5,731 nt of DNA from a virus: positions 1 to 5,731 of IMG/VR virus record IMGVR_UViG_3300045988_001655; one strand, 5' to 3'. A program made the translations under genes and the position numbers. Below, one piece after another: positions 1 through 5,731 of this stretch (position 1 is its first letter; each line of letters begins with the position of its first letter). The notes under the pieces were generated by a model, which had not been told where the DNA came from, did no database searches, and saw nothing but the letters and a program-made list of their open reading frames with translations.

Positions 1-99
1 ATTTTTTTTTGAAAACCTTGAATTTTTTTAGAATTATAGTACAATAGAATCACAGAAAGGAAAGGTGAATACCATGTTACACTGCTACGAAGTACGAAA
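1..99. repeat. Terminal direct repeat, left copy. Bases 1-99 are identical to 5633-5731, so the window wraps a circular genome of about 5,632 bp.
   Basis: Direct reading: a, then T9, then gaaaaccttgaatttttttagaattatagtacaatagaatcacagaaaggaaaggtgaataccatgttacactgctacgaagtacgaaa occurs at 1-99 and again at 5633-5731 (offset 5632). Confidence 0.9.
18..45 (+). promoter_or_regulatory. Sigma70-like promoter for gene 1: -35 TTGAAT (18-23), 16-nt spacer, -10 TACAAT (40-45). It is flanked by T9 and T7 runs that could act as an UP element.
   Basis: Hexamers read directly. It is followed by RBS aaggaaagg and ATG at 74. An identical copy lies at 5650-5677. Confidence 0.45.
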
Positions 100-265
100 G
101 CTTGAAGACAACGGAAAAACAACCACAATTGAAAAGTTTGTGGCAGAACCAAAAGACGCCAAAGCAAAAACAAAAGCATATGCAGAAAAACACCCGGGCT
201 TATATACGCTATACAGAGCAGAACCTGTCGAAATCTATTTTACTGAAAAAGAAAGAAGAGCTTGA
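74..265 (+). CDS. Small hypothetical protein of 63 aa. An alternative GTG start at 65 would give 66 aa. No recognised family.
   Basis: ORF track 65..265. ATG at 74 lies 9 nt after AGG of aaggaaagg, whereas GTG at 65 abuts the RBS. Same strand as all other phage genes. Confidence 0.5.
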   Translation: MLHCYEVRKLEDNGKTTTIEKFVAEPKDAKAKTKAYAEKHPGLYTLYRAEPVEIYFTEKERRA

Positions 266-290
266 CAAGCTATCCTTCCCATGATATAAC
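262..290 (+). promoter_or_regulatory. Near-consensus sigma70 promoter: -35 TTGACA (262-267), 17-nt spacer, extended -10 TGaTATAAC (282-290).
   Basis: Read directly. It overlaps the stop codon of gene 1 and is followed by a leader of about 185 nt before ATG 476. Confidence 0.55.
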
Positions 291-475
291 GCAAATAATC
301 AAACAGCACAGAAGTGTTCCTCACAAATTCATTTTTACAAAAATAACTTTAAGAAAGAGGTGAACCGCCCTGACTCTCCAAGAAATCAAAACGCTGTTTG
401 AAAACATCCAAAAAATCCTTGCCATGCTGGACAAAATCTACCATGCAGTAACAGGGAACGAACCGGAGGCTTAAC

Positions 476-703
476 ATGGAGAAAAAACTATGGAATGTAA
501 GAGACCAGACCGACGAGAACCTTATACAGGAGTTAACGAAAATCCACAGGGGAATCGACGGCGTGTACAGTATGATCAGAAAGGCCGCAACAATCGAAGA
601 CGCAAAATATTACGTTGACCTTGTGTTTCGCAAGAAGGCGGCAGCAAACGAAATTGAGATGGAAATACTCAGGAGGGACATCAACCATGGCAAAGAGGAG
701 TAA
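476..703 (+). CDS. Small hypothetical protein of 75 aa. No recognised family.
   Basis: ORF track. GGAGG (465-469) lies 6 nt upstream of ATG 476. Its 3' end overlaps the next gene by 17 nt. Confidence 0.55.
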   Translation: MEKKLWNVRDQTDENLIQELTKIHRGIDGVYSMIRKAATIEDAKYYVDLVFRKKAAANEIEMEILRRDINHGKEE

Positions 704-806
704 AGTCCGCAAATCCAAAGACGCAAAAATCTACAACAAGACAGCACGAAAAACCAAGGCCATTAACCTTGGCAGCGGCGCAATGAGAGGAGGAATCCGT
801 CTGTGA
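687..806 (+). CDS. Putative J/VP8-like small basic DNA-binding (DNA packaging) peptide, 39 aa: MAKRSKVRKSKDAKIYNKTARKTKAINLGSGAMRGGIRL.
   Basis: The internal ATG at 687 of ORF 615..806 is preceded by AGGAGGGA (671-678) with 8-nt spacing. About one-third of the residues are K/R. Microviridae encode a small basic J or ORF8 protein of about 20-40 aa that enters the capsid with the DNA. Confidence 0.5.
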   Translation: MAKRSKVRKSKDAKIYNKTARKTKAINLGSGAMRGGIRL

Positions 807-829
807 GCTCAGTATACGCAGGAGTAACA

Positions 830-901
830 ATGGCATGCCTCGCAGCAGGCTTTGTCTTCATCGTCTTCGCAATCGACATTATCAAGGAATGGTTCAAATA
901 A
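830..901 (+). CDS. Unannotated 23-aa hydrophobic mini-ORF, MACLAAGFVFIVFAIDIIKEWFK. It is a candidate single-pass membrane peptide.
   Basis: ATG 830 has AGGAG (820-824) 5 nt upstream. TAA 899-901 overlaps the SD of the next gene. The ORF fills the 105-bp gap between two genes. The hydrophobic core AAGFVFIVFAIDII is about one TM helix long. Confidence 0.3.
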   Translation: MACLAAGFVFIVFAIDIIKEWFK

Positions 902-911
902 GGAGAAAAAC

Positions 912-1148
912 ATGAACGTATACGGAATTTTCGATAACTGCGTGATGGGTTATATCGCCATCTTCACCGAACGTGACGACAAAGTGGCCGAACGTAATTT
1001 CAAAATCGCACTGACCGACGAACAAAACATCATGAGCAAGACTCCAAGCGACTATCGGCTGGAGCGACTGGCAAAATTCGACGAGAAAACGGGCCTGTTT
1101 GAAAACGAAAAGGAGAATATCTTCGATGGCGTATCGATCAGTAAGTAA
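912..1148 (+). CDS. Small hypothetical protein of 78 aa. No recognised family.
   Basis: ORF track 852..1148. The true start is probably ATG 912, which has a strong SD AAGGAG (901-906) with 5-nt spacing. The 3' end overlaps the next gene. Confidence 0.55.
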   Translation: MNVYGIFDNCVMGYIAIFTERDDKVAERNFKIALTDEQNIMSKTPSDYRLERLAKFDEKTGLFENEKENIFDGVSISK

Positions 1149-1605
1149 TTTCAGAGAGACTGCAACAGCAAAGCCCACTGAGGCCGGAGAAACCATCAGA
1201 CGGACGTATCTTTGGGAAATCAACGAAAAGGGCGAAAAGGTGCTGACGCTTGACCAGACCATTGACCAGCAGGCAGAAATCGACAGCTACCTAGAAGAGA
1301 CCAAACTGGAAAACATCCTCAGGCGGGCATCCATTGATCCTGACATTGCAGCTAGACTGGTGCCGAACATGGGTGACGGGATCCAAGACGCAACCGGGAT
1401 GCCGGAGAATCTGATGCAGCTCCAGAACATCATGCTGCGGGCCGAGCAAATCTGGGATGAAATCCCAAAGGAAATCAAGCTCAAGTTTGACAATGACGTC
1501 GATAAATTCGTGGCAAGCTTCGGAACTATCGACTGGGCAAAAAATCTGGGCATTTATCAGGAAGAGCTGCCTGAAGAGCCTAAAAAGGAGGAAGCCGCTG
1601 AATGA
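1126..1605 (+). CDS. Acidic 159-aa protein immediately upstream of the capsid gene and translationally coupled to it. Putative internal scaffolding protein (VP3-like).
   Basis: ORF track 1099..1605, where 1099 is a TTG. ATG 1126 has AAGGAG (1111-1116) 9 nt upstream. The protein is rich in E/D, consistent with gokushovirus VP3 scaffolds. The stop TGA 1603-1605 overlaps the VP1 ATG (ATGA). Assignment is by size, charge and position only. Confidence 0.4.
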   Translation: MAYRSVSNFRETATAKPTEAGETIRRTYLWEINEKGEKVLTLDQTIDQQAEIDSYLEETKLENILRRASIDPDIAARLVPNMGDGIQDATGMPENLMQLQNIMLRAEQIWDEIPKEIKLKFDNDVDKFVASFGTIDWAKNLGIYQEELPEEPKKEEAAE

Positions 1606-3269
1606 ACAGAAATAAAGACGCAGGATTCAACCAGGTGCCGCGACTGGACATCACGCGAAGCCGCTTTAAGAGGCGGCAGGACGTAAAGCTCACGCTCAAT
1701 GCTGGACAGCTCATTCCGTTCTATGTGGACGAAGTGCTACCGGGCGACACCTTCAGCATCGACCAAGCCGCAATTATCCGTATGACAACGCCTATCTTCC
1801 CAGTTATGGACAACTGCCACATGGATATCTACTACTTCAACGTACCGTGCCGTATCATCTGGGAACATTTCAAACGGTTCATGGGCGAAAACGACTCCGG
1901 GCCGTGGGCACAGACTCAGGAGTATACCATTCCGCAGGTCAAAGTAACTGGCTCAACCGACAAGCCGGCACCGTACGAGGGAAGCATCATGGACTACATG
2001 GGCATTCCTACCAAGGTGAGCAAAGGAACTGACAGTACCTTCAGCGTTAACGCACTGCCGTTCAGAGCATACGCCATGATTTGGCAAGAGTGGTTCCGCG
2101 ACCAGAACGTGGACAATCCGGCAATCAACAAAACCACAGACGAAACAGTCAACTACACTGACGATGAGACAAAGGGTATGGACGCAACAAATCCTGACCT
2201 TGAATACATCCTACAAAACGCATACACCGGCGGCAGACCGCTGCCGGTGAATAAGTACCACGACTACTTCACATCGGCTTTACCTTCCCCTCAGAAAGCG
2301 GGAGAACCTGTAAAAATCCCTCTGGGAAATACCGCAAAAATATACGGATACTACAACAGCAACCCAGGCCATAAAGCACCAATCGACGGAGACGAATTAA
2401 CCATATACAACGGAAACCGTTCGGAAATAAACAAAGCGGATAGCATCGTTGGGCAACCCTCAAACTTAACGTACGAACCACTTCAACTGAGAGCAGATCT
2501 GTCAAGTGCAACATCTACAACCATCAATCAGCTGAGACAGGCTTTCCAGGTACAAAAGTACTACGAGCAGTTAGCACGCGGTGGCAGCCGCTACCGCGAG
2601 ATGATTTACTCGCTGTTTCATACCAAAATCAGCGATAAGACGGTACAAATTCCTGAATACCTGGGCGGCACACGCATTACTATCAACATGAGTCAGGTTA
2701 TCCAGACCAGCGGCACGACCACCGATAGTCCGCAGGGCAACGCAGCAGCAATAAGTGTTACGCCGTACAACGGGAACATGTTCACCAAGAGCTTCGAAGA
2801 GCATGGCTATGTTATCGGCGTGTGCTGCATCCGGCATGACCATACCTACCAGCAGGGCTTGGAACGCATGTGGAGCCGCAAAACAAATCTGGATTTTTAC
2901 TATCCGGTCTTTGCAAACCTGGGAGAGCAGGCCATCCTGAAAAAGGAGCTGTATCTCACTGGTACGGACACCGACGAACAGGCCTTTGGTTATCAGGAAG
3001 CATGGGCAGAGTACCGAATGAAGCCAAACCGCATCAGCGGCAAGTTCCGGTCGAATGCAGAAGGAACTCTGGACAGCTGGCACTACGGCGACAACTACGA
3101 AAAGGCTCCGAGCCTGAGCCAGGCATGGATGAAAGAGGGAGATTCCGAGATTCAGAGAACTCTGGCCAAAGACAACGAACCTCAGTTTATCATGGATACC
3201 GTCATAGACAATACGTCTGTAAGACCGATGCCAATGTACAGCATTCCGGGTCTCGTAGACCATCACTAA
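1602..3269 (+). CDS. VP1: Major capsid protein (Microviridae F / gokushovirus VP1), 555 aa.
   Basis: The N-terminal region has the FNQVPRLD...[16 protein letters not shown] motif typical of microvirus capsid proteins. The size is right. The central region (about residues 190-330) is hydrophilic and variable, like the gokushovirus insertion loop. AAGGAGG lies 9 nt upstream of ATG. Confidence 0.9.
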
Positions 3270-3280
3270 GAAAGGGGGAA

Positions 3281-3309
3281 GCCCGGGGCAAAACCCCGGG
3301 CTATTTTAT
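3281..3309 (+). terminator. Rho-independent terminator/attenuator between VP1 and VP2: GCCCGGGG-caaaa-CCCCGGGC followed by tATTTTATT.
   Basis: Perfect 8-bp all-GC stem (3281-3288 and 3294-3301), 5-nt loop, then a T-rich tract. It lies immediately after the VP1 stop. Confidence 0.7.
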
Positions 3310-3310
3310 T

Positions 3311-4177
3311 ATGGCATTAGCAGCAATCGGCAGCGCACTGCTCGGAATCGGCAAACAACTACTCCCAACAATCGCCGGAGGACTCATAAACAAATTCCTG
3401 GGTGGAAACCTAATGGAAAGCAATGGAGGGAGCAGTCAGCACAACGAAAGCTCAAGCCAGGGAGGCGGCTACAGCAGCGCCGCCAGCGGCGTAAACCGAG
3501 AACAGAACCTGCAAGACTGGAACAGTATGCTAGGGGCAATTCAAAACAATATGCAAAGCCAGCAGAAGTTTAACCGTCGGAGCATGTTCGAGCAAATGGG
3601 CTATAACACCATGGCGGCAATCACTCAGGGTGTATATAACCAGATAAGCAACAACGCAGCGATGGCCTACAACAGCGCAGAAGCAGCCAAAAACAGAGCT
3701 TGGCAAGAGCAAATGAGCAATACAGCTTATCAGCGAGCTGTAGAAGACATGAAAAAAGCTGGCATCAACCCTATCTTAGCATACCAACAAGGAGGAGCAA
3801 GCACGCCAGGAGGCGCACAAGCCACTATCAGTGGGGCAAGCATGGGACTCGCAAGCAGCAGTGCAGCGAACGCAAGCGCTCTCGGAGTAAGCCAGAATCA
3901 CAACAACACATGGAGCAAAAGCGAAAGCAACTGGTACAACGCGGCACAAGCGGTTGGAGACGCTACAAGCTGGTCTCACACAAGCGCAGACAAAGCGTTT
4001 AATGCATTCAAGGACGTCTTCAATGACCTCAGCAACCTAAACGGTGGCAACGGCGGCGTTGCAAACGCCAGCCAAGGTGCCGGGAGAAAACCGAAGAAAG
4101 ATGAAATCGAATACAGACCGGGAAAAGACTTCATCGGAAGCAAAAACGTCGAATTTTGGAAAGGAAAACTTAAATAA
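3311..4177 (+). CDS. VP2: DNA pilot / minor capsid protein (microvirus H / gokushovirus VP2), 288 aa.
   Basis: Hydrophobic N-terminus [25 protein letters not shown]. It has the conserved pilot-protein block [22 protein letters not shown] and a Q/N/S/G-rich low-complexity body. The ORF-track frame 2870..4177 overlaps VP1, so the first ATG after the VP1 stop (3311) is taken as the start. Confidence 0.8.
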
Positions 4178-5197
4178 ATGGGATGCAACAAACCATTAAT
4201 CCGGTTTTATGTACCTCATGATAGAGAGGCGAGTGGGCGAGTGTACTCACTCGCCTCTTTTAACAAGATTCATGAAACCAAAATACAGTATGAAGACCTG
4301 ATGTATCGCAAAGATGTAATGATGATACCATGCGGACAATGCACAGGATGCAAACTACGCAAGCGCAAAGACTGGGCAACACGAATGGAGCTGGAAGCAT
4401 ACAGCCACGACAAGGAAAGCATCTGGTTTATCACGTTAACCTATGATGACGACCACGTACCAACACAGGACACAGAAACAGGGGAAATCTTCAAGGGAGG
4501 CGTAAACGTATGGAGAGACGCCTCAGAGCGTCCCAGAACGGTGCAAACCTTAAGCGTAGAGGATGTCCAGTTATTCATGAAAAGGCTTAGAAAGGCCGTC
4601 AGCGGGCCTCTCAGATACTTCTTGGCCGGAGAGTATGGAGACAACACCTCAAGACCACACTATCACATGATACTATACGGATGGTATCCGGACAACTTAA
4701 AGCCAATTCACAGGCTGTCAAGGTTTGGACACTACACGAGTGATAAACTGGTCAAAGTCTGGGGACAAGGGACGGTTGACATAGCCCAGGCAACGCCGGA
4801 AACGTATAACTACGTAGCTGGATATGTGACCAAGAAGCTGTACGGAAACGACAAAGACAAGTACAAGAAAATGGGACTCATACCGCCATTCTGCATAATG
4901 AGCCGAAAGCCAGGACTCGGAGACGAATGGTTCCAAAAGAACCAAGAAAGGCTATGGCAACTTGGATACATCCAGCTGACAAACGGCAAAAGAGAAGCCA
5001 TTCCAGAATATTATTGGCGAAAGCTGGAAGCTGAAAATCCTGAAAAGGCGTGGAGAATCAAGCAGTATCGACAAGAAAAAGCCATTGCATCCCTAATCGA
5101 AAGAAACATGGAAACTGACAAACGGTATGCCGAACAACTGGCCGATAAAGAAGCAATAATGAAGAAGAAGATGTCCAAAGCAAAGGGCGTTTTTTAG
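4178..5197 (+). CDS. VP4: Rolling-circle replication initiation protein (microvirus A / gokushovirus VP4), 339 aa.
   Basis: HUH-endonuclease motifs are present: motif I FITLTY, motif II HYHMILYG, motif III YNYVAGYVTKK (two catalytic tyrosines, as in the phiX174 A protein). There is an N-terminal CGQCTGCK cysteine cluster. The start abuts the VP2 stop. Confidence 0.9.
   Translation: MGCNKPLIRFYVPHDREASGRVYSLASFNKIHETKIQYEDLMYRKDVMMIPCGQCTGCKLRKRKDWATRMELEAYSHDKESIWFITLTYDDDHVPTQDTETGEIFKGGVNVWRDASERPRTVQTLSVEDVQLFMKRLRKAVSGPLRYFLAGEYGDNTSRPHYHMILYGWYPDNLKPIHRLSRFGHYTSDKLVKVWGQGTVDIAQATPETYNYVAGYVTKKLYGNDKDKYKKMGLIPPFCIMSRKPGLGDEWFQKNQERLWQLGYIQLTNGKREAIPEYYWRKLEAENPEKAWRIKQYRQEKAIASLIERNMETDKRYAEQLADKEAIMKKKMSKAKGVF
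4225..4258. other. Perfect 11-bp inverted repeat inside the 5' end of the rep gene: AGAGGCGAGTG-(12 nt)-CACTCGCCTCT. GGCGAGTG is tandemly duplicated on the left arm.
   Basis: Arms at 4225-4235 and 4248-4258 are exact reverse complements. The loop ggcgagtgtact overlaps a second GGCGAGTG copy (4236-4243), so alternative pairing is possible. Confidence 0.7.
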
Positions 5198-5206
5198 CTC
5201 TGGTGT

Positions 5207-5263
5207 CACTCAGCCAAGTAACTATCAAGTACATATACTTGGCTGAGTGTTTTTTAGTTTTTT
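5207..5263 (+). terminator. Rho-independent terminator after rep: 14-bp perfect stem CACTCAGCCAAGTA / TACTTGGCTGAGTG with a 15-nt loop, followed by TTTTTTagTTTTTT.
   Basis: Arms at 5207-5220 and 5236-5249 are exact reverse complements. T-runs at 5250-5255 and 5258-5263. Confidence 0.75.
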
Positions 5264-5267
5264 ATCA

Positions 5268-5308
5268 GCGCACGCGCACGCGCACGTAATCGCGCACGTA
5301 CACGTGCG
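5268..5308. repeat. GC-rich alternating purine-pyrimidine island. (GCGCAC)x3 is tandem (5268-5285), with a fourth copy at 5292-5297, and a palindrome CGCACGT-ac-ACGTGCG at 5293-5308.
   Basis: Read directly. Strict Pu/Py alternation over 5268-5288 (21 bp) and 5291-5308 (18 bp). The island is flanked by T-runs on both sides. Confidence 0.8.
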
Positions 5309-5331
5309 ATTTTTATTATATTATTATTTAC

Positions 5332-5352
5332 TTGTTGTAGTAGTAGTAGTAG
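5332..5352. repeat. Trinucleotide microsatellite (TTG)2(TAG)5.
   Basis: ttgttgtagtagtagtagtag read directly. TAG units at 5338-5352. Confidence 0.85.
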
Positions 5353-5356
5353 GGAG

Positions 5357-5532
5357 TGTTGAAATGTTGAAAACTATGAATATCTATCCTTGGAACGATA
5401 TTTTGTAGTCAATTTTGATGTTGATAACTTTGTGGAAAACTTGTTGAATTGTTGAAAGTGTAGCAATATGCACAAAACCATTTGTGCAACTTTTTGTGGA
5501 AAACCTGTTGAAAGTGTTGAAAGTGTTGAAAA
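5357..5532 (+). promoter_or_regulatory. Iteron array of about 10 same-orientation copies of TGTTGAAA(R) in three clusters: 5357-5373, 5419-5458 and 5495-5532. It includes two TGTGGAAAA variants (5431-5439 and 5495-5503), a 21-bp direct repeat (5428-5448 and 5492-5512, 19/21 identical), and a perfect tandem TGTTGAAAG-TGTTGAAAG-TGTTGAAAA at 5506-5532.
   Basis: Copies read directly at 5357, 5365, 5419 (TGTTGATAA), 5431, 5442 (TGTTGAAT), 5450, 5495, 5506, 5515 and 5524. Confidence 0.8.
5469..5488. repeat. Palindrome TGCACAAA-acca-TTTGTGCA centred between the two 21-bp iteron repeat units.
   Basis: 8-bp arms are exact reverse complements with a 4-nt spacer. Confidence 0.8.
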
Positions 5533-5542
5533 TGTAATTAGA

Positions 5543-5611
5543 GGCAGCTCGGCAGCTGGCCGAAAGGTTACGTCATGCTCTTCGTACGGCGCACCGCGCC
5601 TAGCGCATGAC
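5543..5611. other. GC-rich structured block: direct repeat GGCAGCT-c-GGCAGCT (5543-5557), then nested inverted repeats GTCATGC (5572-5578) / GCATGAC (5605-5611) enclosing GGCGC-acc-GCGCC (5588-5600).
   Basis: Read directly. This is the only GC-rich segment of the AT-rich intergenic region apart from the GCGCAC island. Confidence 0.6.
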
Positions 5612-5632
5612 CTTCAATGCAAAATTCGTCTA

Positions 5633-5731
5633 ATTTTTTTTTGAAAACCTTGAATTTTTTTAGAATTATAGTACAATAGAATCACAGAAAGGAAAGGTGA
5701 ATACCATGTTACACTGCTACGAAGTACGAAA
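5633..5731. repeat. Terminal direct repeat, right copy (wrap-around of the circular genome). It contains a second copy of the gene-1 promoter and the first 26 nt of gene 1 (5706..5731).
   Basis: Exact match to 1-99. ATG at 5706 corresponds to ATG at 74. Confidence 0.9.

Follow-up and report, generated by a model that had tools for sequence, protein, structure and literature searches.

Gene content and organization of the genome

The window, the whole stretch of 5,731 nt that was analysed, carries capsid, scaffolding, pilot and replication genes together with several small open reading frames. The features from its start to the end of the Rep gene are listed below.

1-99, no strand: terminal direct repeat, the same as 5633-5731, read as the assembly wrap-around of a 5,632-nt circle
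18-45 (repeated at 5650-5677), plus strand: sigma-70-type promoter-like site TTGAAT-16-TACAAT upstream of orfA, a consensus match only
74-265, plus strand: orfA, 63 aa, lysine-rich, no family match
370-474, plus strand: conserved 34-aa ORF, its stop 1 nt before the orfB start
476-703, plus strand: orfB, 75 aa, third-position bias 1.75, intact in 19 of 27 relatives
687-806, plus strand: ORF8/J-like basic 39-aa protein (phrog_10695, E=6.2e-9), substitutions 37/19/304
830-901, plus strand: conserved 23-aa hydrophobic peptide MACLAAGFVFIVFAIDIIKEWFK with an AGGAG ribosome-binding site
912-1148, plus strand: VP5 (PF20577, E=6.7e-17; phrog_1670, E=4.8e-22)
1126-1605, plus strand: VP3 internal scaffolding protein (PF09675 Chlamy_scaf, E=1.1e-19; phrog_1642)
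1602-3269, plus strand: VP1 major capsid protein (PF02305, E=2.6e-144; phrog_514, E=2e-210)
3280-3302, plus strand: GC-rich 9-bp hairpin with a T-rich tail, between VP1 and VP2
3311-4177, plus strand: VP2 DNA pilot protein (phrog_8742, E=1.6e-96), variable C-terminus
4178-5197, plus strand: VP4 rolling-circle Rep (PF23343, E=7.1e-18; phrog_942, E=6.9e-111), with HYHMILY and YVAGYVTKK

As the preliminary description had stated, every supported gene lies on the plus strand, and the capsid, pilot and Rep genes that it named from the letters are confirmed by the family matches above. The profile check that it proposed for VP1 and VP4 returned PF02305 and PF23343, respectively. The match of VP1 extends over its full length, as in F-type capsid proteins, and 3,636 phage records match it by tblastn, named mostly as microviruses or Microviridae and gokushoviruses. 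The closest DNA relatives of the window are Gokushovirus and Gokushovirinae records, and the Gokushovirinae markers are present in the form of VP3 and VP5. In VP4, HYHMILY and the two-tyrosine motif YVAGYVTKK are those of a superfamily-I HUH rolling-circle Rep. The size of 5,632 nt falls among circles of about 4.4-6.3 kb with genes on one strand, and family membership implies that the virion would contain single-stranded DNA. The absence of recognisable G spike and D external scaffold genes also held, as no Pfam or PHROGs match to them was found in the ten ORFs scanned (370-474 and 830-901 were not among these).

Two other claims held in part. A coding share of about 91% had been given; the value lies between 88%, with supported genes only, and 95%, when 5247-5408 and 5468-5644, two ORFs without support, are added. 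The cyclic gene order was given correctly and does differ from that of Chp2 and phiMH2K, but it is not unusual, being the normal order in annotated gut gokushoviruses (KT264789 and MG945657), and does not set the genome apart; Rep comes last in the coordinates of the window.

Among the small ORFs, orfA sits in a hypervariable accessory-gene slot of low conservation (about 5628-295), and its homologues, 42-73% identical, are scattered over the clades. The -35 box of the promoter-like site is better in the aligned relatives (TTGAC). The 34-aa ORF has no ATG, GTG or TTG start; a CTG lies 7 nt past a GAGGTG ribosome-binding site, codon-position substitutions are 114/70/292 in an alignment with 27 relatives, and none of the 12 translations inspected has a broken frame. 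Homologues of orfB (36-84% identical) occur in all three clades and are missing from some clade C genomes. The 39-aa J-like protein is probably a DNA-packaging protein, and a comparable small protein of phiMH2K is annotated as 'putative DNA binding protein'. The 23-aa hydrophobic peptide, missing in 7 of 27 relatives, is a candidate membrane or lysis peptide. The open frame of VP3 extends from 1099, with a probable ATG start at 1126, and the conservation profile of VP1 has a hypervariable loop at 2296-2495. The hairpin at 3280-3302, flanked by a 50-nt bin that is 94% conserved, looks like a terminator or attenuator.

Terminal repeat and completeness

Positions 1-99 and 5633-5731 are 100% identical at a spacing of 5632 nt, as had been claimed, which gives a 5,632-nt circle. 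A direct terminal repeat by itself cannot distinguish an assembly overlap from a biological repeat, such as one at the junction of a head-to-tail concatemer or one from a prophage, whether excised or integrated. The relatives, however, speak against the latter. Thirty IMG/VR relatives found via Rep are all contigs of 4.6-6.4 kb, circularly permuted and without host flanks, and their terminal overlaps of 55, 69, 71, 99, 119, 127 or 141 nt lie at differing genome positions. Since the relatives are all genome-sized and both their breakpoints and their overlap lengths vary, the repeat is read as an assembly wrap-around rather than a prophage junction. The window itself has no host flanks, no relative lies inside a longer contig, a scan of 185,579 species genomes for close relatives of VP1 yielded no prophage, and no integrase was found among the ORFs run against Pfam and PHROGs. 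The search for flanking host DNA that had been suggested was thus negative in both collections, and a biological origin of the repeat is hardly credible. The earlier view of the window as a complete circular microvirus replicon is supported by the Gokushovirinae protein families, the wrap-around and the genome-sized permuted relatives. The window almost certainly holds the whole circular genome, 5,632 nt in size, of a gut gokushovirus (Microviridae, Gokushovirinae), present as a linear contig with a 99-nt end overlap. Apart from its non-coding region this genome is routine, an ordinary new gut gokushovirus.

The non-coding region downstream of VP4

The only long non-coding region of the genome, 5198-5632 plus 1-73, lies downstream of VP4. 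The two ORFs previously placed there (5247-5408 and 5468-5644) are spurious, as they lack codon periodicity and their frames are broken in relatives. An oriC-like DnaA module, absent from the preliminary description, was found instead in this region, which has the following layout.

5207-5256, plus strand: 14-bp hairpin with a T-run, an inverted repeat with 3 different compensatory pair changes among relatives
5268-5311, no strand: GC-rich alternating purine-pyrimidine tract (GCGCACG repeats) with a second hairpin and T-run at its end
5308-5337, no strand: AT-rich tract, 87% AT, candidate DNA-unwinding element
5338-5352, plus strand: five perfect DnaA-trios, 5'-TAG-3' x5 (3'-GAT-5' on the other strand), 94% conserved (79 unique sequences)
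5353-5373, plus strand: 4-nt GC gap (GGAG) and tandem DnaA-box-like 9-mers TGTTGAAAT and TGTTGAAAA, the trio-proximal boxes
5419-5460, plus strand: second box array, TGTTGATAA (1 mismatch), TGTGGAAAA (1 mismatch), TGTTGAAT and TGTTGAAAG
5469-5488, plus strand: 8-bp hairpin TGCACAAA-ACCA-TTTGTGCA, containing a partial box
5495-5532, plus strand: third box array, TGTGGAAAA-CC-TGTTGAAAG-TGTTGAAAG-TGTTGAAAA
5540-5612, plus strand: GC-rich structured module, in which an almost invariant nested stem-loop (5572-5611) comes after a variable 5-bp hairpin

The first hairpin is a probable terminator after VP4, and the second is also terminator-like. The second and third arrays share the same polarity, each with one strong box ahead of several weak ones, and most relatives have a perfect TGTGGATAA where the second array of the window has TGTGGAAAA. 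In clade B the hairpin at 5469-5488 is lost and TTGTGCAAC is retained. The structured module at 5540-5612 is common to clades A and C, with a different sequence at this place in clade B, and may represent the region nicked by Rep or an origin for the complementary strand.

Comparison with the bacterial origin unwinding module

As published, the unwinding module of bacterial origins (BUS) is defined by a box with no more than 2 mismatches to TTATCCACA or a species-specific box, an optional second box with up to 4 mismatches, and at least 3 NAN trios (consensus 3'-GAT-5') within 16 bp of the box, with a modal spacer of 13 (PMC8287927). An AT-rich region for unwinding lies past the trios, and strand separation by DnaA-ATP depends on boxes and trios alike. 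The minus strand of the window at 5373-5357 reads TTTTCAACA (2 mismatches) and ATTTCAACA (3 mismatches), the five trios follow after a spacer of 12 nt, and the AT-rich region lies beyond them, so the window passes the sequence part of this definition. Judged by the strict E. coli consensus, the majority of close relatives break the two-mismatch rule at the trio-proximal box; with 3 mismatches at each of the two boxes, they pass only if the host-type motif is used. A chromosomal oriC stands next to dnaA or dnaN. The viral element adjoins VP4 in a phage genome and is therefore better called an origin mimic than an oriC.

Such an arrangement rarely arises by chance. Only 2 of 2000 random genomes passed even a minimal version of the published test, and none of 1000 contained a host-type module. 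Within 175 nt of the plus strand there are 9 copies of the host-type box TGTKGAWA, with one more elsewhere in the genome; in random genomes its mean is 0.86 and its maximum 5. The BUS finder detected no origin-like module in the Chp2 and phiMH2K genomes, so the module is not a general gokushovirus feature. In the literature searched, no rolling-circle ssDNA phage was described as carrying a full unwinding module with trios.

Conservation and distribution among viruses

The trios and boxes are 94-95% conserved, compared with 79% at the positions between them, in a set of relatives partly picked by an exact 20-mer of the element, which makes 5495-5514 invariant by construction. Among genomes picked by the 20-mer or by trio-plus-box motifs, the element is 84-95% identical even where Rep is about 41% and VP1 about 49% identical. 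The module is always located beside VP4, in three arrangements and in both orientations. It lies on the opposite strand in 26 of 48 new microvirus-sized contigs, where the virion strand reads CTA, not TAG, and in the inverted lineages it is situated directly upstream of VP4. That it occurs in either orientation relative to VP4 suggests that it acts on double-stranded DNA. The replication gene clusters of larger phages also contain similar modules.

Likeness to bacterial origins and the likely host

Near-identical modules exist in the dnaA-dnaN spacers of Ruminococcus, in which the same 8-mers of the TGTKGAWA type dominate and where the genes dnaA, dnaN, recF, rnpA and yidC were confirmed. Two of these host modules (L118 and L104) have the box TTTTCCACA, a spacer of 13, 4-5 trios and then an AT-rich tract, with the layout and polarity seen in the virus; the position of the viral AT-rich tract relative to the trios is likewise that of the host origins. 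A viral variant (L134, L163 and L219) is identical over 35 nt to another host module (L126). The 20-mer at 5495-5514, on whose biased search, the same as that used to pick relatives, the host link rests, gives 26 genome hits, 8 of them beside dnaA or dnaN in bacteria, and most of the 26 are coding-region coincidences. The matches between viral and host DNA are short (35-47 nt), and it is solely the abundance of TGTTGAAA in host origins that marks it as a DnaA site. DnaA boxes occur almost universally, and this makes the host assignment less specific. A Ruminococcus-like member of the Clostridia, with near-identical modules in its own origins, may be the host, a proposal to which we give equal measures of belief and doubt. 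The element downstream of VP4 suggests a way in which the virus exploits its host, and also the identity of that host.

Possible role of the element

As a whole, the data are best explained by a complete gut gokushovirus genome with a compact mimic of a bacterial origin after its Rep gene, a reading that we hold with good confidence. With similar confidence the element is predicted to bind host DnaA, and most likely it would recruit DnaA onto double-stranded viral DNA. On the replicative form, DnaA-ATP would bind the boxes and extend from them onto the trios, the AT-rich tract would open, and the helicase-loading and replisome proteins of the host would be recruited beside the Rep gene, making the element an origin or an origin-assisting element. 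A role in unwinding or initiation, rather than in titration or regulation only, is a tentative assignment to which we give slightly under even weight. In phiX174 the rolling-circle Rep is the sole phage-encoded initiator needed. The present genome retains an intact Rep of this kind, and a second initiation system is therefore not obviously required. A bolder and rather unlikely version is a dual-mode replicon, in which the replicative form would fire as a DnaA-dependent oriC-type minichromosome (theta) tied to the host initiation cycle, Rep would mainly make single strands for packaging, and the module would be a portable cassette swapped among lineages and tuned to the host origin. If this were true, plasmid-like persistence would be achieved without an integrase, the module sequence would predict the hosts of uncultured microviruses, and the strategy would extend to larger phages with trio-containing modules.

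DnaA binding could also serve no origin at all. About ten boxes of the same polarity in 175 nt, carried on a multicopy replicative form, could soak up DnaA and halt host initiation or alter DnaA-controlled transcription; alternatively, DnaA could act as a transcription factor at nearby viral promoters, and in the inverted lineages it would be placed to control Rep expression. DnaA-box clusters outside oriC do modulate initiation in B. subtilis, yet such a cluster on a multicopy plasmid failed to restore initiation control (PMC3245932). Moreover, boxes alone would suffice for a sink or regulator, whereas divergent lineages preserve the exact origin geometry of trios, short gap and AT-rich tract, and the position and orientation of the module to the nearest promoter vary. 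We consider this explanation unlikely, to about the same degree as the dual-mode replicon. Still less probable is a complementary-strand origin on the packaged strand, where DnaA would bind the TAG trios and hairpin boxes of the incoming single strand and load helicase and primase, as the ABC primosome does on M13 A-site DNA. DnaA on a box-containing hairpin can indeed prime ssDNA replication (PMC6127211), the TAG strand of the window is the coding and therefore the virion strand, and a partial box lies within the hairpin at 5469-5488. However, that hairpin is not conserved in clade B, all boxes of the module are direct repeats and unable to base-pair among themselves, and the 26 inverted contigs carry the module on the opposite strand.

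Chance likeness of AT-rich low-complexity sequence, or passive capture of a functionless host fragment, is very improbable. The shortness of the host matches and the coding-region coincidences of the 20-mer would fit it, but the random genomes, the lower conservation of the spacers between motifs, the retention of the module in many lineages and three arrangements, always beside Rep, and the 8 matches flanking dnaA or dnaN all argue against it. The stronger conservation of trios and boxes is read as a sign of selection.

Significance

Gut gokushoviruses belong to the most abundant phages associated with humans, and to our knowledge the hosts and replication origins of most of them are unknown. 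If the module is real, it offers a testable hypothesis for how these viruses engage host DnaA. It would also give a handle for host prediction by matching viral modules to bacterial dnaA-dnaN spacers, leading here to Ruminococcus-like Clostridia, and a new annotation marker for the long intergenic region that looks empty and in which ORF callers place spurious genes. Its presence in larger phages may mean that origin mimicry is a general phage strategy.

Comparison with known systems

The gut gokushoviruses in GenBank (Microviridae sp. MG945657, Gokushovirus WZ-2015a KT264788/KT264789 and Gokushovirinae sp. PV067914) are 80-83% identical in nucleotides over 54-92% of the genome, the closest at 83%. 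Their size is similar and their cyclic order, VP1-VP2-VP4-gap-VP5-VP3, is that of the window. They share the region downstream of VP4, which is unannotated, the intergenic element being annotated in no record, and differ in the accessory slot, the VP1 loop and the VP2 C-terminus. The reference Gokushovirinae, Chp2 of Chlamydia and phiMH2K of Bdellovibrio, share the protein set of VP1-VP5 and a small basic protein and likewise lack G and D genes; their VP1 is 40-41% identical, their genomes are about 1 kb smaller, and VP3 follows VP2, whereas it precedes VP1 in the window.

Among the mobile replicons of plasmids and phages, P1 oriR, pSC101, F and RK2 have their own initiator and recruit host DnaA via boxes beside the initiator gene; their origins consist of iterons with a few DnaA boxes and work in theta mode. 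The BUS (B. subtilis incC; Pelliciari et al. 2021, PMC8287927) and the virus share tandem boxes, a short GC-rich gap, at least 3 3'-GAT-5' trios and an AT-rich tract, with the same polarity and a spacer of 12-13 nt. The bacterial module lies between dnaA and dnaN, whereas the viral one lies on a 5.6-kb ssDNA phage genome beside a rolling-circle Rep gene, with all boxes in one polarity and trio-proximal boxes of the weak TGTTGAAA type. The ABC primosome A-site on M13-derived ssDNA resembles the viral proposal in that DnaA starts replication of a small ssDNA phage-type genome (PMC6127211). The A-site, however, is a single box in a hairpin on ssDNA, whereas the virus has direct-repeat box arrays with trios, in an orientation to the virion strand that is not fixed.

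Circular genome, gene content and placement

The preliminary description had read the terminal identity as a circle, with a concatemer or a prophage junction as alternatives. Bases 1-99 are indeed identical to 5633-5731, giving a non-redundant unit of 5,632 nt; apart from this, notable repeats in the window are limited to some short ones within the final 500 nt and a perfect 14-bp inverted repeat at 5207-5249. The 30 IMG/VR relatives found by a Rep search are all contigs of 4.6-6.4 kb, none embedded in a longer contig, and their terminal overlaps measure 55, 69, 71, 99, 119, 127 or 141 nt, or are absent. Most of these lengths are usual k-mer sizes of assemblers. Since the Rep coordinate differs from contig to contig, the contigs represent circular permutations of one map. 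A VP1 search for prophages in one genome per species of 185,579 bacterial and archaeal species, reaching close relatives only, revealed no close relative, and no integrase is encoded in the window. Varied overlaps, permuted maps and the lack of embedded relatives, genome matches and an integrase together indicate that the 99-nt repeat is the assembly wrap-around of a circle, and the proposed check for host flanks was negative.

In GenBank, the genome comes closest to Microviridae sp. MG945657, a record of human faecal origin (83% identity over 92% of the genome); next come Gokushovirinae and Gokushovirus WZ-2015a records, obtained from faeces of human, monkey and pig. The gene order had been described as differing from the usual gokushovirus arrangement, and the annotations of the type phages bear out the difference: the order is VP1-VP2-VP3-ORF8-VP4-VP5 in Chp2 and VP1-VP2-VP3-VP5-J-like-VP4 in phiMH2K, both unlike the window. 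The gut relatives are annotated with the cyclic order VP1-VP2-VP4-gap-VP5-VP3, as in the window. Because this order is the norm of the gut clade, the genome as such adds one more routine member to a known clade. The capsid, pilot and Rep genes (VP1, VP2 and VP4) claimed earlier were identified with Pfam and PHROGs.

Genes identified in the window
687-806, J/ORF8-like basic protein of 39 aa (phrog_10695)
912-1148, VP5 (PF20577)
1126-1605, VP3 (PF09675)
1602-3269, VP1 (PF02305, E=2.6e-144)
3311-4177, VP2 (phrog_8742, E=1.6e-96)
4178-5197, VP4/Rep (PF23343; phrog_942, E=6.9e-111; motifs HYHMILY and YVAGYVTKK)

Substitutions were counted by codon position in an alignment of 27 related genomes, all rotated to a common start. 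Third-position excess was observed in VP1, VP3, VP4, VP5 and the J/ORF8-like gene (ratios 3-11), in VP2 (1.8), and also in orfB (476-703) and a 34-aa ORF at 370-474 (LTLQEIKTLFENIQKILAMLDKIYHAVTGNEPEA). The latter, overlooked by standard ORF callers, has a strong third-position bias and a frame intact in 12 of 12 translations. It has no ATG, GTG or TTG start; a CTG lies 7 nt 3' of a GAGGTG site, and in some relatives the codon two positions upstream (364-366) encodes Ile. Its stop sits 1 nt before the orfB start, suggesting that translation of the two is coupled. About 20 of the 27 relatives keep a 23-aa hydrophobic peptide, at 830-901 in the window (MACLAAGFVFIVFAIDIIKEWFK), located between the J-like gene and VP5 behind a good AGGAG ribosome-binding site. 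It is a candidate for a membrane or lysis function; to our knowledge, no lysis gene has been assigned in the Gokushovirinae. Two further ORFs, 5247-5408 and 5468-5644, were not upheld, with third-position ratios of 1.2-1.3 and frames intact in only 7 of 27 and 11 of 25 relatives. The coding density, stated earlier as about 91%, is 88% with the supported genes. A mini-ORF at 5364-5408 (MLKTMNIYPWNDIL) was also rejected, as internal stops and loss of the stop codon occur in relatives.

Two coding segments are hypervariable, the VP1 surface-loop region (2296-2495) and the VP2 C-terminus (3996-4177), with identities of 0.20-0.58 vs about 0.85 elsewhere, which would fit diversifying selection on host-contacting parts. 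Between VP1 and VP2, a highly conserved, strong GC hairpin of 9 bp, followed by a T-rich tail (3280-3302), may be an attenuator setting the capsid:pilot expression ratio. Directly after the origin-like region lies a hypervariable slot of accessory genes (5628-5632 and 1-295), occupied in the window by orfA (74-265); unrelated inserts in the relatives expand the alignment here from 5.6 to 7.8 kb. Homologues of orfA (42-73% identity) are scattered over distant clades, suggesting gene shuffling at this slot. One relative, L044 (IMGVR_UViG_3300045988_020851), is a mosaic, with VP1, VP2 and VP4 only 50%, 40% and 43% identical to the window vs 81% for VP3, 83% for VP5 and 97% for ORF8. These identities are direct evidence that distant gokushovirus clades have exchanged modules by recombination, with breakpoints near the intergenic element.

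An origin-like element downstream of Rep

Features of the region 3' of Rep
5207-5249, hairpin with T-run after the VP4 stop
5268-5311, GC tract of alternating purines and pyrimidines, with a second hairpin at its end
5308-5337, AT-rich tract
5338-5352, five TAG DnaA-trios
5353-5373, GC gap and tandem boxes
5419-5460 and 5495-5532, two further box arrays
5540-5612, GC-rich module with nested stem-loop
5650-5677, promoter-like site after the GC-rich module

Within the close clade, 5198-5627 is conserved to the same degree as coding sequence, at 0.74-0.94 per 50-nt bin. Matches to this region are present in about 40 GenBank gokushoviruses, and no annotation lies beneath them. The hairpin at 5207-5249, with three different compensatory pair changes in relatives, is very likely a terminator. 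Near-perfect purine-pyrimidine alternation extends over 40 nt (5268-5307, GCGCACG repeats); this Z-DNA-prone tract abuts the AT-rich tract and is kept in clades A and B and part of clade C of the three protein clades of relatives. The GC-rich module following the third box array contains a nearly invariant nested stem-loop and is common to clades A and C; the clade B sequence differs. A search of the whole window against Rfam at E<=1 returned a single sub-threshold chance match (osmY, 18.9 bits vs a cut-off of 46.9), and the plasmid database contained no match to the element. An ssoA-type origin ('TAGCGC' at about 5598, like the CS-6 motif) was rejected, as its third base is G, C or A among relatives.

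The published basal unwinding system (BUS) of bacterial origins is defined by a first box that differs from TTATCCACA at <=2 positions and may be joined by a second with <=4 mismatches, a spacer of <=16 bp, most commonly 13, and >=3 NAN trios with the consensus 3'-GAT-5' (PMC8287927). The window contains such a module. Its minus strand reads, from 5373 to 5338, TTTTCAACA, TTTCAACA, CTCC and five times CTA, where TTTCAACA is the remainder of a second box, ATTTCAACA, overlapping the first by one base. The spacer is 12, and the five perfect trios are followed by a tract of 87% AT; only 2 of 2000 random genomes passed even the minimal definition. Three of the genome's 4 one-mismatch boxes fall within 5419-5503, and the host-type 8-mer TGTKGAWA is found 9 times between 5357 and 5531 on the plus strand, with a single copy elsewhere (in random genomes, the mean is 0.86 and the maximum 5). 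The bare count of TGTGNAWAA, 2 in the window, is not significant alone (23 of 200 shuffles reach 2), and the case for an origin therefore rests on the full module and the comparison with hosts.

Scanning a 20-mer from the region through IMG/VR gave 79 contigs, microvirus-sized without exception, in which 5495-5514 is invariant by construction. Across 79 unique sequences from three protein clades, conservation is 94% at the trios and 94-95% at the boxes vs 79% at positions between, a pattern by which selection is seen to act on trios and boxes. At the site of TGTGGAAAA in the window, most relatives have the perfect box TGTGGATAA; in clade B the proximal box is changed to TGTGGAAAA and one trio to GAG, its central A retained. 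By the strict E. coli consensus, most close relatives fail the two-mismatch rule at the proximal box, so that the case then requires TGTTGAAA to be a weak DnaA site of the host type, as we infer from its presence in host origins. In this 20-mer-selected set, segment 5320-5535 remains 84-95% identical in genomes whose VP1 and Rep share only 48-50% and 40-42% identity with the window; it drops to 75-79% in a clade whose Rep is 54% identical. Conservation of the element is therefore decoupled from protein divergence, suggesting a cassette recognised by a host factor rather than by Rep.

Distribution and orientation

Scanning for four TAG trios with a host-type box after them gave at least 119 loci, among them many further gokushovirus lineages with protein identities as low as 28-43%. 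Of the new contigs, 22 carry the TAG trios on the coding strand and 26 on the opposite strand. The module adjoins VP4 in every representative mapped, and all or nearly all boxes within a genome share its polarity.

Arrangements of the module
Downstream of VP4, orientation as in the window
Upstream of VP4, inverted
Downstream of VP4, inverted

In this virus family, the virion strand is the coding strand. Since the module occurs both ways, the element is independent of the packaged strand, suggesting that it acts on the replicative form, which is double-stranded. The two orientations also argue against a phiX174-like Rep nick site at the AACTTG beside the trios, a candidate weakened by its position on the non-virion strand in inverted lineages.

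About 40 matches of the scan lie in larger phage contigs (IMG/VR, 10-140 kb). Clean origin-type modules, with AT-rich tract, TAG trios, GC gap and tandem TGTGGATAA-type boxes, are present in L132, L142, L147, L195, L200, L217 and about 35 more. Neighbours in the sampled cases are a primase (L132), a clamp-like gene, an exonuclease and a methyltransferase (L200), an integrase (L195) and an endolysin (L217); neither dnaA nor dnaN was found within these loci.

Comparison with bacterial origins and possible function

Of 26 bacterial genome contigs containing the element 20-mer, 8 have it immediately next to dnaA or dnaN; most other matches are coincidences inside coding sequence. In Ruminococcus MAG contigs, the match lies within spacers of about 0.6-1.3 kb dense in the 8-mers TGTTGAAA and TGTGGAAA. 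Flanking genes, by NCBIfam, are dnaA-spacer-dnaN-recF in contig L118 and jag-yidC-rnpA...dnaA-spacer in L104. The dnaA-spacer-dnaN setting is the classical origin position of Firmicutes. In these host spacers the BUS finder identified TTTTCCACA, a spacer of 13, 4-5 trios and an AT-rich tract facing dnaN, the same layout and polarity as in the window. Over 35-37 nt, the viral module shares 89-92% identity with its counterparts in L104, L118 and a third bacterial contig, L126, and a variant module of other gokushoviruses (L134, L163, L219) matches that of L126 exactly over 35 nt. CRISPR spacers were rejected as the source of the host matches, as these fall among the densely packed boxes of dnaA-dnaN intervals rather than in repeat-spacer arrays.

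L126 (CAYWPN010000018) is labelled uncultured Alistipes sp.; its DnaA fragment is 65% identical to that of a Ruminococcus MAG and its origin boxes are TGTTGAAA, and because of this resemblance the contig probably comes from a member of the Clostridia and was mis-binned into a Bacteroidota MAG. In another Ruminococcus MAG contig (CANQJV010000069, L109), 23 TGTTGAAA/TGTGGAAA boxes are clustered at 6100-6600 of the locus, between a pepV-like gene and birA; with no match to dnaA or dnaN within the 8-kb locus, these may form a secondary cluster of DnaA boxes away from the origin.

The sequence architecture, the match to host origins, the motif-specific conservation, the adjacency to Rep and the independence of orientation are established at the sequence level, and a mechanism is proposed in which host DnaA-ATP would bind the boxes on replicative-form DNA, spread onto the trios and then open the AT-rich tract. 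The element may instead mainly sequester or sense DnaA, as its box arrays could allow, but the conserved geometry of trios and AT tract favours unwinding over pure titration. A role on single-stranded DNA like that of an ABC primosome has a precedent (PMC6127211), but the occurrence of the module in both orientations relative to the virion strand argues against it.

A full-text search, incomplete in coverage, found no literature joining Microviridae or gokushoviruses with DnaA or DnaA boxes, and in the DnaA-trio literature mentioning bacteriophage, likewise incompletely covered, no title or abstract concerned a phage element. The origin mimic appears to be an undescribed feature of this gokushovirus clade and of other phages. 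Opening by DnaA may start theta-type replication of the replicative form, or may give the rolling-circle Rep access to single-stranded DNA. In Firmicutes, origin opening leads to helicase loading dependent on DnaD/DnaB/DnaI, and the strand that DnaD recognises is the complement of the trios (PMC10201434).
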